Assembly (NCBI RefSeq): GCF_011045215.1
Contig: NZ_CP049201.1
Source: Escherichia coli
GTDB taxonomy: Bacteria; Pseudomonadota; Gammaproteobacteria; Enterobacterales; Enterobacteriaceae
Direction: 5' to 3' (one strand)
Length of the DNA stretch: 64,000 nucleotides
Under the pieces are notes generated by a model. The model was given only the letters and a program-made list of their open reading frames with translations. It had not been told where the DNA came from and searched no databases. Within the stretch, counting starts at the first letter, position 1. Each line of letters opens with the position of its first letter. Positions 8,623-12,180 of the stretch are shown one piece after another. The position numbers were made by a program, and so were the translations under genes.

Positions 8623-10180
8623 TCGCCTGAAAAAACTGTTTCCCGGTAACAGCAATACCAGCAGTACTGAGACAACTGCCCCGGAGGTTGCACACCAGTC
8701 AGAACGTCTGCCTGAAGGTTTTTATATGCCCCGGACTGCGGAGGAACTGACGTCCACACCACACAGGAAACAGTGCCTGAAACAGCTGTGGGAAAACAGC
8801 AGTATGCCATCCGACGTGTATCAGCAGTTCTGTCTGGCGCCGGTACAAAAACTCCTGATGGCGGCGCAGAACGTTCCCGCTGCCAGAGACTCCCGGTGGG
8901 CAGATGCCAACGGTTTTGGCGACCTGACGCTGCAGTTCACCACCTATGCCGTTCGTCTGGCCAGAGGATATATGTTTCCGCCCGGTGCCACACCGGAAGA
9001 GCAGGCCGCACAGTCTGGTGTATGGAATGCCGTGGTGTTCTGGTCGGCACTGTTTTATCACCTGCCACTTCTTGCACACCTTGAGGGTGAACTGGTCAGT
9101 GGAAAGTTATGGCAGCCGGGGATGTCATCACCGGATGAGGCATTTCGTTTTCGTTACAGACAGCAACGTCTGCAGGACACAGAGGCACAGCAACTGGCAG
9201 CGGTGATGGCCGGGCAGTTGTTACCTGAGGGAGCGACTGCTTGGCTGGCCACTGTACCGGGGGCATTACAGAATCTGGCGGGAGCGGTCTGGAATCAGCA
9301 TCCGGAGATGGCATTGATTCGTTCAGTCCTGAAAACAGCGGCAGAAGAGGTGGAGAGTCCGCTTCTCGCGTTGCCAGTAACGGAACCCGTAACGGCACCT
9401 TTGCCTTCAGAAACCACTGTGCAGTCTGAAGGCAATGTGCCATCTGAGAGCCAGCCAGAAACATCAACAGAGGCCATTGCGCCGGAAATGCCGGCGGTCG
9501 TCACGGAGGTGGGCGAATTTACGCTGCAGCCATCTGTTTCAGGAACCGGTGAGGCAGAAGCAGTAGCCCCGGATACGTTGCAGTCTGCAACAGACACGGA
9601 GAAAAAGTCACCTGAGGAGCAGAGCCTCCATGATGATACCGATATATTGCTGAGTCTGTTTTCTGCTGCAGATGACCATGCTGCAGTAGTGACAGCGGAT
9701 GGAGAATGCTTACAGGAAACGCAGATGCTGATTGATAATGATCATTCTCAAAGAAAACATGAGGATGCCTCTATCACATTGATTTCCGGAAGCTCTGCTC
9801 CGGAAGCTGTTATTTCAGAAGGAGAGATGTTTATAAACTGGTTAAAAAAAGGAGTGAGAAACGGGGAAATTAGCCTGAACGGAAAAAAAGATAAAATTCA
9901 TATTGTTGCCGGCTTTGTTTTTTTACCAGTACCGGGAATTTTTTATGAGTTTACGAAAGCAGCAGGCATCCCTGCAGACAAAAAAGATGATATTCAGGCA
10001 TCGTTTGAACGCCTGAGCATTCATAAGCGGCGGGATAACCGACGCTTTTATTTTGCACATTTGTGTGAAGAGCCTGAAAACAGAAGTCGTTTTAAAACGC
10101 TAAAAGGTTATCTGGTAAAAGGCAGGCAGCTCCTGGATGGACAGGAACTACAGGACAGCCGTTATCTCTTTTTTCCATGA
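8615..10180 (+). CDS. Hypothetical protein, helicase-coupled partner (521 aa), no recognisable catalytic motif, central Pro/Glu/Thr-rich low-complexity segment
   Basis: Start ATG 8615 preceded by AGGAGG and overlapping the helicase stop by 8 nt (ATGCTTAA); no Walker A or nuclease motif seen. Confidence 0.6.
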   Translation: MLNRLKKLFPGNSNTSSTETTAPEVAHQSERLPEGFYMPRTAEELTSTPHRKQCLKQLWENSSMPSDVYQQFCLAPVQKLLMAAQNVPAARDSRWADANGFGDLTLQFTTYAVRLARGYMFPPGATPEEQAAQSGVWNAVVFWSALFYHLPLLAHLEGELVSGKLWQPGMSSPDEAFRFRYRQQRLQDTEAQQLAAVMAGQLLPEGATAWLATVPGALQNLAGAVWNQHPEMALIRSVLKTAAEEVESPLLALPVTEPVTAPLPSETTVQSEGNVPSESQPETSTEAIAPEMPAVVTEVGEFTLQPSVSGTGEAEAVAPDTLQSATDTEKKSPEEQSLHDDTDILLSLFSAADDHAAVVTADGECLQETQMLIDNDHSQRKHEDASITLISGSSAPEAVISEGEMFINWLKKGVRNGEISLNGKKDKIHIVAGFVFLPVPGIFYEFTKAAGIPADKKDDIQASFERLSIHKRRDNRRFYFAHLCEEPENRSRFKTLKGYLVKGRQLLDGQELQDSRYLFFP

Positions 10181-10237
10181 AATGCGTTCCGGAGGTGAGC
10201 CTTGTTGTTGAACGGATATATTTAAAGGTAAAGAAAT

Positions 10238-11230
10238 ATGAAAACTCACGATGTTGACAGCCTCTGGGATAATCTGATGGATGAGTATTTTTTTTGTAAG
10301 TCGTTACGGAGAGCCACGGAGTGGAGTTATCGCAAGGTGTTGTCGGGGTTCCGGAAGTTTGTTGGTTTTCACCGGACTCCTGACAGCATTGTTCGTCGTG
10401 ATGTTCAGGAATGGCGTCGTTTTGTGCTGAAAGATCAGGGGTTAACTTCCCATACCTGGAATAACAAGGTGAGGCATATGCGTGCGATTTATAACTTTGG
10501 AGAAGAATCTGGGTTGATCACTGTTTCAGAAAATCCTTTTAGTGGCATGCTGGTTAAGCAGGAAAAAAGACGGAAGAAAACGCTGACAAAAGCACAGATC
10601 TCGCGGATTGTGCTTATTCTGCAACAATTTTCGGAAGCAGAAAATCAGTACACCGGACTTTATATCAAATGTGCCATAAGGCCAGCGTGGTTCTGGCTGA
10701 CGGTGGTGAATACCCTGCGTTACACCGGTATGCGTCTGAATCAGTTGCTGCATTTACGCCTAAAGGATGTTTGTCCGGCAGAAAAATGGATCGATTTACG
10801 GGCTGAAGGTAGTAAAACTCACAGAGAATGGCGTATTCCGGTTGCGCGTCAGTTACAGCCACAACTGCAGAAACTACTGGATGAAGCCGTCAGACGGGGA
10901 GCCACACCGGAAGACTATCTTTTCCACTACAAGCGTTTTGTTGTGCCGGTGTCAGAAGCAAAACGTATAACGGGTTTGCCGGATGAGCAGCCTGTGAAAT
11001 CGTTTTTCCGCAGATTATCTCAGGAGTGTGGTTTTCAGGTGTCTCCACATCGTTTCAGACATACACTGGCGAGTATACTGATGAGCACTCCGGAGCGTAA
11101 TCTTCACCTGGTGAAAAACATGCTCGGACACCAGAACGTATCAACCACAATGGGATATGTGGAGATGAATCTGGAGATTGCCGCACAGGCACTGGAGCAT
11201 GAACTGGAGGTGTTCACTGACAGGCTGTAA
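10238..11230 (+). CDS. Tyrosine site-specific recombinase / integrase (330 aa)
   Basis: C-terminal catalytic region HRFRHTLAS ... LGHQNVSTTMGYVE (R-H-R-Y family); adjacent to tRNA-Phe. Confidence 0.85.
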   Translation: MKTHDVDSLWDNLMDEYFFCKSLRRATEWSYRKVLSGFRKFVGFHRTPDSIVRRDVQEWRRFVLKDQGLTSHTWNNKVRHMRAIYNFGEESGLITVSENPFSGMLVKQEKRRKKTLTKAQISRIVLILQQFSEAENQYTGLYIKCAIRPAWFWLTVVNTLRYTGMRLNQLLHLRLKDVCPAEKWIDLRAEGSKTHREWRIPVARQLQPQLQKLLDEAVRRGATPEDYLFHYKRFVVPVSEAKRITGLPDEQPVKSFFRRLSQECGFQVSPHRFRHTLASILMSTPERNLHLVKNMLGHQNVSTTMGYVEMNLEIAAQALEHELEVFTDRL

Positions 11231-11288
11231 TCGCAGACAGATTGACAATCCACTGAAGGGTTGTAATCATATATAGTGATCGAGAAAA

Positions 11289-11313
11289 GGGAGCATGCGG
11301 CAAACATGCTCCC
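11289..11313. terminator. Hairpin between integrase and tRNA-Phe (possible int terminator or att-region structure)
   Basis: Perfect 9-bp inverted repeat GGGAGCATG / CATGCTCCC with 7-nt loop. Confidence 0.35.
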
Positions 11314-11422
11314 TTTCGAGAAGAAAAATCATGATGTACATGAACCAGACTCACGACATCTGACACCTTCCCGATGACACCCGTCAGGTTTCTCACTCCT
11401 GACCAGTGGCTTTGATGTAAGG

Positions 11423-11498
11423 TGGTGCCCGGACTCGGAATCGAACCAAGGACACGGGGATTTTCAATCCCCTGCTCTACCGACTGAGCTATCCGGGC
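11423..11498 (-). tRNA. pheU: tRNA-Phe (GAA)
   Basis: Reverse complement reads GCCCGGATAGCTCAGTCGGTAGAGCAGGGGATTGAAAATCCCCGTGTCCTTGGTTCGATTCCGAGTCCGGGCACCA. Confidence 0.95.
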
Positions 11499-11604
11499 AA
11501 CGGGGCGCATTAAACCGTAATCTGCACATCTCGTCAACCTAATTTCAGTAAAAGCGATTCAACTGCTTAAGATTGCGGCAAATCGCTTCTTTTCTGTGTT
11601 TCTG

Positions 11605-12180
11605 TCAGGTCAATGCGCCACCCTGGCGGCAGCGGGCGAAGCGCAGGATATCTTCCGCCAGCCGATGTGCAGTGTCGACATCCGCCTGGCTACGATTCAC
11701 CAGCATCCGGCTCAGGCATCCTTCCAGCACCAGTTCCATCTGCTTTGCTACCATCGCCGGATCGTCAACTTCCAGCGTGGTTAACAGTTCGTGGGTGAAA
11801 TCGTAGGCCGCGCTTTTTTGCTGATCGGCCAGTTGATGAATAGGGTGGCCAGGATCGGGATAAAACGTACAGGCAGCGATAAATAGACAGCCCGGATAGC
11901 GGTTGTTTTTAACGCACTCCGATAACGCCTGATAACGTGCCAGCAGCTTTTGTTCGGCGGTTTGCGTTTCGTCCAGCATCAGCTGACGACGCCAGACATC
12001 TATCTGTTGGCTAAGATAACGCAGCGCATCGTAGAGGATTGCCTCTTTGTCTGGCCAGAAGCGGCGCAGCTCGTCCAGTGGATAATCCACACGTTCAGCA
12101 ACCATCTCCAGCGTGGTGTTGGCAATCCCTTGTAATTCTAATAATTTCAGGGCTTCTCCCAGTACATCTTCACGTTGCAC
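11605..12180 (-). CDS. yjdC: TetR-family transcriptional regulator YjdC
   Basis: Translation recognised as K-12 YjdC; K-12-like GTG start at 12180 (an in-frame ATG also exists at 12204). Confidence 0.85.

Follow-up and report, generated by a model that had tools for sequence, protein, structure and literature searches.

The pheU-proximal end of a probable integrating conjugative element in Escherichia coli and its predicted tRNA-facing terminator

Genes at the pheU junction

We identified the end of an island next to the tRNA-Phe gene pheU in the window, the whole stretch of 64,000 nucleotides of Escherichia coli DNA analysed here (Table 1). Three mobility genes lie at this end in the order helicase-traI-int, and int converges on the 3' end of pheU, stopping 192 bp short of it. 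The integrase gene, pheU and the strong hairpin between them, which had been pointed out in an earlier reading of the letters alone (the sequence-only reading), were all recovered at the same positions, as an open reading frame, by ARAGORN and Rfam, and as a stem spanning 11289-11313, respectively. The genes of the related island of E. coli UMNK88 as annotated in RefSeq provide a guide to gene boundaries. The helicase homologue starts there at the equivalent of 7108, and is named ‘UvrD-helicase domain-containing protein’ in UMNK88, in the circular pSGI4 and in a Citrobacter circle. The relaxase matches NCBIfam TIGR03760, ‘integrating conjugative element relaxase, PFGI-1 class’, at 206.8 bits (cut-off 161.4); its tabulated start is that of the longest ORF, and its RefSeq homologue starts at the equivalent of 8615, so that the gene overlaps the helicase stop by 8 bp. 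The homologous int gene has the same ends as the ORF in the window. Cargo genes in the window encode an EAL-domain protein and an AIDA-like autotransporter.

Table 1. Features at the pheU-proximal end of the island (positions in the window)
Feature	Position	Strand	Basis and remarks
UvrD-like superfamily-1 helicase	7042..8622	+	Pfam UvrD-helicase, UvrD_C_2, UvrD_C
TraI/MobH-type relaxase, PFGI-1 class	8534..10180	+	Pfam TraI_2 and TraI_2_C; NCBIfam TIGR03760
Xer-like ‘simple’ tyrosine recombinase, ICE integrase	10238..11230	+	330 aa; PF00589; reads towards att and pheU
Outward sigma-70 promoter-like site	11242..11270	+	Consensus scan
Intrinsic terminator (predicted), tRNA strand	11280..11316	-	Fold, d-score, covariation, U-tract
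Second conserved stem-loop, tRNA trailer	11377..11409	-	Predicted fold; RNAalifold on relatives
Inferred att core (49-bp 3' part of tRNA-Phe, anticodon stem to CCA)	11423..11471	-	UMNK88 direct repeat
tRNA-Phe(GAA) gene pheU	11423..11498	-	ARAGORN; Rfam tRNA, 68.3 bits

The gene pheU and its upstream flank are identical to those of K-12, with dicD/yjdC, dsbD and cutA on the pheU 5' side as in that strain. The sequence-only reading had suggested setting 11231-11422 against the K-12 cadC-pheU spacer. In this comparison identity ends exactly at the pheU 3' end, position 11423, and thus 11231-11422 is, by this alignment, wholly island DNA with no cadC-pheU spacer in it. Remnants of P4-type (CP4-like) islands flank the pheU site, one example being yjdQ, a pseudogene in K-12 whose counterpart carries the annotation of an integrase fragment in UMNK88. 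We found no second copy of the tRNA 3' end within the window, and the far end of the island therefore lies outside it; the window holds about 11.4 kb of island and a single end. This end is present in 27 of the 5426 complete E. coli genomes. The corresponding region of UMNK88 is 98% identical and lies at one end of an island about 65.6 kb long, which encodes parA, dnaB-PI, parB, topoisomerase III, ssb, pilL, traD, TIGR037xx ICE proteins and traG. The maintenance module and the G-type secretion and pilus genes seen in UMNK88 and in circular relatives would thus fall beyond the window here.

Elements of similar design are known. ICEEc2 (of E. coli BEN374, reportedly described by Roche and colleagues in 2010), SGI-4, ICEKp2 and ICEPan are pKLC102/PAGI-2 (PAPI) ICEs at tRNA-Phe (pheU/pheV) that have, like the end studied here, a XerC-like integrase and a TraI relaxase on the tRNA-proximal side, and that carry parA at the other end. 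The window integrase is just 42-65% identical to those of other genera, and the cargo noted above also differs. Both pSGI4 and the Citrobacter circle share the helicase-traI-int order. PLSDB contains circular records of relatives, and in the two circles just named int, the promoter-like site, the hairpin, att and parA follow one another in order on one strand. Among 80 related loci, 49 carry tRNA-Phe on the opposite strand, 180-400 bp beyond the int stop. Convergence of int on tRNA-Phe is a family rule, and a short integrase in convergent orientation is normal for this ICE family. Excision, circularisation and transfer have been shown for ICEEc2 and ICEKp2 (PMC6761156), for SGI-4 (PMC6543542) and for an ICE at pheU/pheV (PMC13127887), and a further report shows excision and transfer of relatives (PMC4458695). 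By analogy with these relatives, the copy in the window may also be able to excise.

Given these features, we consider it likely that 7042-11471 is the att-proximal (right) end of an ICE of the pKLC102/PAGI-2 (PFGI-1, ICEEc2, SGI-4) family, inserted in the 3' part of pheU, and that the hairpin is a terminator facing the tRNA gene. The locus itself is ordinary, a known type of conjugative island (ICEEc2/SGI-4/PAPI-1 family) in E. coli pheU, and of low novelty. Adhesins and resistance to metals and antibiotics are found on elements of this kind, which are also able to mobilise chromosomal DNA (PMC13127887); the correct recognition of such ICE ends is of practical value for annotation.

The integrase and its inferred att core

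The integrase matches Pfam Phage_integrase (PF00589) with an E value of 5.8e-19 and 68.9 bits (cut-off 27.1). The catalytic tyrosine, Y307, the absence of which the sequence-only reading had named as part of what would refute it, is invariant in an alignment of 27 sequences, as are R166, K193, H271, R274 and H298, so that the RKHRHY active site is complete. Judged from these residues, the 330-aa protein is a real tyrosine recombinase and probably active. The domains detected with Pfam and NCBIfam are Phage_int_SAM_4 (core-binding, SAM-like, a weak match) and Phage_integrase, and nothing else; a search of both collections for an arm-binding domain (DUF4102/Arm-DNA-bind) found none. The XerA, XerC and XerD models align to the integrase over their full length (residues 19-317), all scoring below their cut-offs, and its best relatives among solved structures are XerA and XerC-like. 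By its domain content the integrase is thus a Xer-like, two-domain ‘simple’ enzyme, composed of core-binding and catalytic domains without an arm-binding domain.

P4-type integrases, of about 400 aa, have an arm-binding domain at the N terminus and are transcribed away from the tRNA. P4-type (CP4-like) islands occupy the same tRNA-Phe targets, pheU and pheV, as the ICE in the window. Membership of the window integrase in the P4 type was considered and rejected on account of its length and of the missing arm-binding domain. The remark in the sequence-only reading that the enzyme is shorter than P4-type integrases holds, the difference being explained by the Xer-like two-domain architecture, and all 120 homologues among the matches listed measure 306-375 aa. 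In tblastn searches the integrase of pKLC102 is 38% identical over 91% (E 3e-52) and that of ICEHin1056 30% identical. ‘Simple’ recombinases of PAPI-1 and ICEEc2 have been described as ‘IntKX’ (PMC8138268), and no excisionase (Xis/RDF) partner is reported for 15 IntKX ICEs (PMC8138268) or for SGI-4 (PMC6543542).

The att core can be placed with the help of UMNK88, where an exact 49-bp copy of the tRNA 3' part at the left junction of the island adjoins the native pheU terminator of K-12 type. The same 49 bp lie between int and parA in pSGI4 and in the Citrobacter circle. We infer from UMNK88 that the att core consists of the final 49 bp of the tRNA gene, beginning 107 bp from the hairpin. The hairpin had itself been put forward as a possible att core; this has to be abandoned, as the empty site of K-12 has no similarity to 11231-11422 and the repeat in UMNK88 corresponds to 11423-11471. 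Most likely, the integrase would recombine the 49-bp tRNA-Phe segment of attP, which contains the symmetric anticodon stem-loop, with the same segment of the chromosome. Integration of this kind would keep the tRNA gene intact and displace its own terminator by about 65 kb, so that it sits at the opposite island end. The partial tRNA copy left by a CP4-type island in strain XB2 is only 23 bp long, as against 49 bp for the ICE, which indicates that CP4-type islands and the ICE use different sub-sites of the same tRNA. Two integrase families would thus share pheU and pheV, and the length of the copies may help in reading tandem islands at this hotspot.

The hairpin and the putative outward promoter

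The hairpin has a G+C-rich core of 9 bp, in which GGGAGCATG (11289-11297) pairs perfectly with CATGCTCCC (11305-11313) around a loop of 7 nt (11298-11304). The sequence-only reading saw this core correctly, but the full perfect stem is 12 bp (11286-11297 with 11305-11316), and below it comes another stem, TCGA/TCGA. The predicted folding energy is -21.2 kcal/mol on the + strand and -23.0 on the - strand (z = -5.2 and -5.8), and none of 200 shuffled sequences was as stable. On the tRNA strand the hairpin is followed by the U-tract UUUUCUCG (UUUUCUCGA as the complement of 11280-11288), while the tail in the direction of int, on the + strand, reads UUUCGAGAAG. We scored both strands with our own d'Aubenton-Carafa-type implementation using modern energy parameters, and obtained d = +11.8 on the tRNA strand versus -15.0 on the int strand; the former is modest beside the +29.0 of the native K-12 pheU terminator. 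A simple built-in terminator scan called the hairpin on neither strand, because its greedy stem extension absorbs three of the U's. An Rfam scan of 10000-11700 (E <= 1) matched the tRNA alone, with no RNA family for this hairpin or for the second stem-loop.

About 50 related loci have an equivalent hairpin, equally far from the tRNA. Its stem sequence differs freely even between close relatives and its loop varies from 3 to 8 nt, and the only invariant flank is the T-run on the tRNA strand. All nine pairs identified by RNAalifold show compensatory changes, 89.5% of cells are paired (67.0% in shuffles), and the covariation score is 0.731, which 0 of 500 shuffles attain, as against 0.289 when shuffled and at most 0.143 with partners slid, although the related loci are phylogenetically non-independent and these shuffle counts overstate significance. 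Across 60 loci, d is positive on the tRNA strand in 41 and not positive in 19, is positive on the int strand in 8, and is higher on the tRNA strand in 56, with medians of +8.1 and -25.8. In the same loci, there are 35 G·U cells versus 9 A·C cells when the stem is read on the tRNA strand. A tRNA-sense hairpin with a U-tract is also found between int and att in pKLC102, which targets tRNA-Lys. ICEHin1056, checked as a third tRNA target, was uninformative, as an additional gene separates its int from the end of the record and a similar spacer is missing. Since the tRNA strand is favoured by the U-tract, by the d-scores and by the G·U pairs alike, the hairpin is most likely a family-conserved, element-borne replacement terminator for pheU.

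A terminator that protects the tRNA had been among the roles first suggested for the hairpin; its terminator-like character is borne out, but the polarity is most likely the reverse, such that transcripts of pheU would be stopped on entering the island. Predicted from the sequence, termination at the hairpin would give pheU transcripts a defined end about 140 nt beyond the mature 3' end, and would keep antisense transcription, driven by the strong tRNA promoter, out of int, traI and the remaining island. The ICE family appears to bring its own terminator facing the target tRNA gene, which would explain how a highly expressed tRNA gene, cut off from its native terminator by a 65-kb insertion, avoids antisense transcription of int.

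Between the int stop and the hairpin we identified an outward sigma-70 promoter-like site (TTGACA-17-TGnAATCAT), made up of the -35 hexamer TTGACA (11242-11247), a 17-bp spacer and TGt followed by the -10 hexamer AATCAT (11265-11270). The predicted start is near 11277, about 9 nt ahead of the hairpin. Sites scoring at least 9 are present in 52 of 58 distinct related loci and sites scoring at least 10 in 49, a score of 10 being reached by only 4.6% of shuffles. TTGACA is identical in the 49 loci where it is found, the spacing is 17-18, TG is kept in 47 of the 49, and the spacer sequence varies. It is the sole sigma-70-like site in the int-parA spacer of circular pSGI4, and the stretch from att to parA has none when the element is integrated. 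The promoter-like site of pKLC102 is found past the hairpin, and promoter and hairpin are therefore separable. Promoter activity, as suggested by the consensus match and its conservation, would be directed through the hairpin, which is predicted to be a poor terminator in that direction. Excision would bring the two ends of the element together, so that the promoter faces the parA-dnaB-parB operon across attP. Expression of PAPI-1 soj reportedly rises on circularisation, when the gene becomes linked to a promoter at the 3' end of the element (PMC2654960, citing Qiu 2006). By analogy, the outward promoter probably drives parA after circularisation. The conserved promoter marks the island end and may provide, across Enterobacterales, a sequence basis for the circularisation-dependent soj/parA expression reported in PAPI-1.

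The hairpin might instead end the traI-int transcript, alone or as a bidirectional terminator shared with pheU, and so shield the tRNA from read-through. It lies 56 nt beyond the int stop between convergent genes, an A-run precedes it and UUU follows it on the + strand, and some relatives have moderately T-rich tails on the int strand (mean 4.0 T in 9 nt), in keeping with the eight loci of positive d. We nevertheless regard termination of int as unlikely, given the tail and the negative d of the window itself, the wide separation of the two medians, and the fact that the G·U pairs of the tRNA strand turn into A·C mismatches when the int strand is read. The promoter also argues against efficient termination in the int direction: conserved between the int stop and the hairpin, it would be pointless if transcription of the + strand were stopped there, and its place beyond the hairpin in pKLC102 shows that the two parts can be separated.

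Two further explanations are less probable than termination of int. One takes int for a decayed remnant and the hairpin for an incidental inverted repeat at the dead end of an island, in line with the rarity of this end among complete E. coli genomes, with the mere 11.4 kb or so of island in the window and with relatives that clearly are remnants, for instance that of XB2, in which a frameshifted cargo gene precedes int. It is very unlikely, as the ORF is intact and keeps all catalytic residues, the region is 98% identical to the copy on the complete ICE of UMNK88, conservation of hairpin and promoter, with covariation, extends across genera, and the shuffled sequences exclude chance. Most improbable in our view is a site acting at the DNA level, either an attP inverted repeat bound by the integrase or an accessory protein, or a single-strand oriT or initiation structure. 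The 12-7-12 arms do resemble the core sites of simple recombinases (Xer, lox, FRT), the distance from the hairpin to the att core is at most 110 bp (and that to traI 1.1 kb), and single-stranded DNA tolerates G·T pairs. A palindromic site co-evolving with its protein would change on both arms, and an inverted repeat bound by a co-evolving dimeric protein would likewise show symmetric changes. Yet the integrases share one tRNA-Phe target while the stem sequence varies, which fits a role of structure and not the recognition of a sequence; the crossover region is the 49-bp tRNA segment, the loop length is not fixed, and no model of recombination or nicking needs an invariant T-run on the tRNA strand.

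Related systems and the tRNA trailer

The PAPI-1 and pKLC102 elements share the architecture of this end (mobH/traI, int, att and then soj/parA in the circle), the Xer-like integrase type and the tRNA-sense hairpin with U-tract between int and att, and an outward promoter at their int end is reported to raise soj expression on circularisation (PMC2654960, PMC2704930). Their target is tRNA-Lys, whereas that of the ICE in the window is tRNA-Phe. Unlike that of the window, the promoter-like site of pKLC102 lies between the hairpin and att and would yield a transcript without the hairpin. The pKLC102 integrase, at 427 aa, has extra N- and C-terminal sequence beyond the aligned core. The Pcirc promoter of ICEclc is an outward promoter that is fused to intB13 at the other end in the circle only (PMC5812530). 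The logic is the same as that proposed for the promoter in the window, but the ICEclc promoter is far from int and drives the integrase, whereas the promoter here is at the int end and would drive parA. The ICEclc integrase is also long, P4-like and directed away from the tRNA, in contrast to the short integrase studied here, which reads towards it.

In phage lambda, int reads towards att and a hairpin, the sib/tI retroregulator, lies past the int stop. The lambda-like geometry noted in the sequence-only reading stands in so far as the integrase converges on pheU much as lambda int reads towards attP. The lambda sib spans attP and is parted from int by integration, whereas the hairpin in the window lies between int and the att core whether the element is integrated or circular; the window enzyme is also without an arm-binding domain, and the polarity of the hairpin as a terminator is opposite to int. 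Retroregulation of the lambda sib type was rejected, as the hairpin is linked to int in both the integrated and the circular form.

The second conserved stem-loop lies in the trailer of the tRNA, 14-46 nt beyond its 3' end. The core of the stem is GUCAGG/CCUGAC (11383-11388 with 11398-11403), and the outer stem is CACU/GGUG. An RNAalifold prediction on 29 relatives gave 10 pairs, seven of which show compensatory changes, and G·U pairs are numerous when the tRNA strand is read. A 10-codon ORF after the hairpin (ATGATGTACATGAACCAGACTCACGACATCTGA, 11333-11365) was also considered and rejected, the spacer sequence there being unconserved among relatives.

We speculate that the trailer of about 140-150 nt could be an island-encoded structured RNA of three stem-loops ending in the terminator, made solely from the host pheU promoter while the island is integrated, and forming, with convergent transcription, a switch that responds to the state of integration; we hold this to be rather doubtful. 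Such an RNA would resemble a tRNA 3' external transcribed spacer RNA. If the switch were real, the promoter for parA and partition would be kept off while the island sits in the chromosome and set free in the circle that excision produces. The trailer is fully antisense to the leader of the transcript predicted for the outward promoter.

Integrase and element family

We identified a Phage_integrase domain (Pfam, E 5.8e-19) and a weak Pfam match to an N-terminal SAM-like core-binding domain in the 330-aa recombinase encoded next to the tRNA-Phe gene pheU. The NCBIfam models XerA, XerC and XerD align to nearly its full length with scores below their cut-offs, and the nearest solved structures are XerA and a XerC-like protein. 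Neither Pfam nor NCBIfam detected an arm-binding domain, the absence of which accounts for the short length pointed out by the sequence-only reading. An alignment with 26 homologues (47-65% identity) shows no variation at R166, K193, H271, R274, H298 or Y307; the catalytic Tyr, whose absence that reading had named as part of a refuting outcome, is thus present as Y307. Integrases of ICEEc2-type ICEs have been named ‘IntKX’ and described as simple recombinases without an arm-binding domain or a detectable Xis (PMC8138268).

The two genes upstream of int encode a UvrD-like helicase and the relaxase TraI, whose score against TIGR03760 (‘integrating conjugative element relaxase, PFGI-1 class’) exceeds the cut-off. 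The counterpart region of E. coli UMNK88 is 98.3% identical and forms the end of an approximately 65.6-kb island encoding parA, dnaB-PI, parB, topoisomerase III, ssb, pilL, traD, TIGR037xx ICE proteins and traG. ICEEc2, inserted at pheU in E. coli BEN374, is a pKLC102/PAGI-2-family ICE related to ICEKp2 (PMC6761156); ICEPan (PMC4458695) and SGI-4 (PMC6543542) are elements of the same kind, and ICEs at pheU and pheV mobilise chromosomal DNA (PMC13127887). The locus, real but ordinary, is the att-proximal end of an ICE of this known family and carries the Xer-like integrase customary there.

A database search with a cut-off of E <= 1e-10 retrieved 367 integrase homologues; those listed, 120 in number, are 306-375 aa long. 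Among 80 related loci fetched from Enterobacterales genomes, 49 have tRNA-Phe on the opposite strand, 180-400 bp beyond the int stop, and partial tRNA copies occur in several of the others. Convergence of int and tRNA-Phe is the family rule. Here 192 bp separate the int stop from the tRNA 3' end, and the claimed arrangement, a recombinase reading towards pheU with a hairpin between them, is present in full. The 5' side of the tRNA holds dicD/yjdC, dsbD and cutA, as at K-12 pheU.

Helicase and traI overlap in their reading frames; traI would start at about 8615, 8 bp ahead of the helicase stop (mapped from the UMNK88 RefSeq annotation), which suggests translational coupling of the two. Cargo, in part a gene fragment, lies beside the mobility genes, and the equivalent place in UMNK88 holds an inverse autotransporter.

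Features of the att-proximal island end (window positions)
Feature	Position	Strand	Remark
EAL-domain c-di-GMP phosphodiesterase-like protein	781-1569	+	cargo
Fragment resembling C-terminal part of UidC porin	1804-2277	+	cargo
AIDA-I/MisL-type autotransporter adhesin, 850 aa	2997-5549	-	cargo
Helicase-traI frame overlap	8534-8622	+
Integrase ORF, 330 aa	10238-11230	+
Promoter-like site TTGACA-17-TGtAATCAT	11242-11270	+	between int stop and hairpin; -35 TTGACA 11242-11247, -10 AATCAT 11265-11270
tRNA trailer, tRNA end to predicted terminator	11274-11422	-
Hairpin, perfect 12-bp stem overall	11286-11316
Second stem-loop	about 11377-11409	-	14-46 nt beyond tRNA-Phe 3' end
tRNA-Phe(GAA)	11423-11498	-	in E. 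coli chromosome
49-bp segment repeated in UMNK88	11423-11471		inside of anticodon stem to CCA

The hairpin between int and tRNA-Phe

The perfect 9-bp stem noted earlier is formed by GGGAGCATG (11289-11297) and CATGCTCCC (11305-11313) around a 7-nt loop. Its predicted folding energy is -21.2 kcal/mol on the + strand and -23.0 on the - strand (z about -5 to -6), and none of 200 shuffles was equally stable. Comparison with the K-12 cadC-pheU spacer, proposed by the sequence-only reading, revealed identity only from 11423 rightwards and unrelated sequence leftwards; the hairpin is therefore island DNA.

That reading had considered the hairpin to be either the att core or a terminator protecting the tRNA from read-through. 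At the distal island end of UMNK88, the 3' part of the tRNA recurs as an exact 49-bp copy, directly adjoined by the native K-12-type pheU terminator (AAACGGACCTCC-ACGG-GGAGGTCCGTTT). Circular records of two relatives, pSGI4 and a Citrobacter ‘plasmid’, also hold these 49 bp, positioned between int and parA. These relatives place the att core, by inference, within the tRNA gene; it begins 107 bp away from the hairpin rather than in it. Integration at such a core also shifts the native terminator away by the length of the island.

The polarity of the hairpin is most likely opposite to that suggested. In the window, the d'Aubenton-Carafa-type score reaches +11.8 for the tRNA strand and -15.0 for the int strand (+29.0 for the native K-12 pheU terminator). 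Of 60 loci scored, 41 have a positive value for the tRNA strand and 8 for the int strand; in 56 the tRNA strand has the higher value. The tRNA strand has 35 G·U cells against 9 A·C cells (G·U when read on the opposite strand), and on the tRNA strand most loci keep a U-tract flank, the hairpin being followed by TTTTCTCG, TTTTTCG or TTTTTTCG. pKLC102, which targets tRNA-Lys, likewise has a tRNA-sense hairpin and U-tract between int and att.

Stem sequences vary widely between loci (GGGAGCCTG, GGATGCCTGTG, GGGAATCTG, GGGTAGCTGT, GAGTGTTTGC, CCAGAGGCAT, GCCCGCTTG and others) while spacing from the tRNA end is similar, 105-145 nt in most. Applied to 32 distinct sequences aligned with MAFFT, RNAalifold recovered the stem unaided, with compensatory changes in 9/9 pairs. 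Paired cells amount to 89.5% (67.0% in shuffles) and the covariation score is 0.731 (0.289 in shuffles), a value reached by 0/500 shuffles, counts that are not probabilities because the loci are kin. Controls with slid partners retain this kinship, yet score at most 0.143. Thus, the hairpin is most likely a family-conserved, predicted intrinsic terminator against transcription from the tRNA gene. Ending int transcripts is probably not its role, although it may act more weakly as a bidirectional terminator. A terminator facing the tRNA would substitute for the displaced native pheU terminator and shield int and traI from antisense transcription.

A predicted outward-facing promoter

The promoter-like site faces out of the island, through the hairpin. 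It scores at least 9 in 52 of 58 distinct related loci and at least 10 in 49, a level reached by 4.6% of shuffles. In the 49 TTGACA-bearing loci this hexamer shows no variation, a spacing of 17-18 precedes a -10 of the form nAnnAT, and TG is retained in 47; the spacer sequence varies freely. This conservation pattern indicates a selected, predicted promoter with an extended -10.

In the circular records the site faces across att into parA-dnaB-parB, and the int-parA spacer of pSGI4 has no other sigma-70-like site. In integrated UMNK88, no such site was found from the att repeat to parA. In the circle, the predicted promoter would read across att into parA. This resembles PAPI-1, for which PMC2654960 and PMC2704930 (citing Qiu 2006) report higher soj expression in the circular form, as a result of soj being joined to a promoter at the element's 3' end. 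ICEclc Pcirc follows a parallel logic (PMC5812530). pKLC102 has the same two parts in reverse order (L086 4896-4960 and L087 1-140, two fetched pKLC102 loci): the predicted tRNA-sense terminator comes first, and TTGACA-17-TAATGT follows, nearer the att segment of tRNA-Lys; parA lies 136 bp into the record.

tRNA trailer and neighbouring islands

The trailer is unusually structured, with a predicted fold of three stem-loops (-60.3 kcal/mol, z about -5), and is more stable on the tRNA than the int strand in 49/52 related loci (median z -4.07 vs -3.10). The second stem-loop covaries, is rich in G·U pairs when read on the tRNA strand, and keeps a GAUGAGA-like loop in many relatives; a U-tract is absent there. 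The trailer could be a stable RNA. We consider it unlikely that it is an island-encoded RNA transcribed from the host tRNA promoter in the integrated state alone and antisense to the leader of the outward transcript.

In E. coli XB2 (NZ_CP162303.1, 3001-4320 of the fetched locus), the same integrase gene is followed by just 23 bp of the tRNA 3' end, and next to these a CP4-type island (DUF4942, cbtA/cbeA) has its distal end. Tandem islands occupy one phe tRNA here. The partial tRNA copies differ by integrase family, 23 bp for the CP4-type island and 49 bp for the ICE. The ‘empty’ K-12 cadC-pheU spacer contains the yjdQ pseudogene (L001 2692-2854), whose UMNK88 counterpart (L083 5167-5326) is annotated as a frameshifted tyrosine recombinase fragment; another island appears to have sat at this site before.
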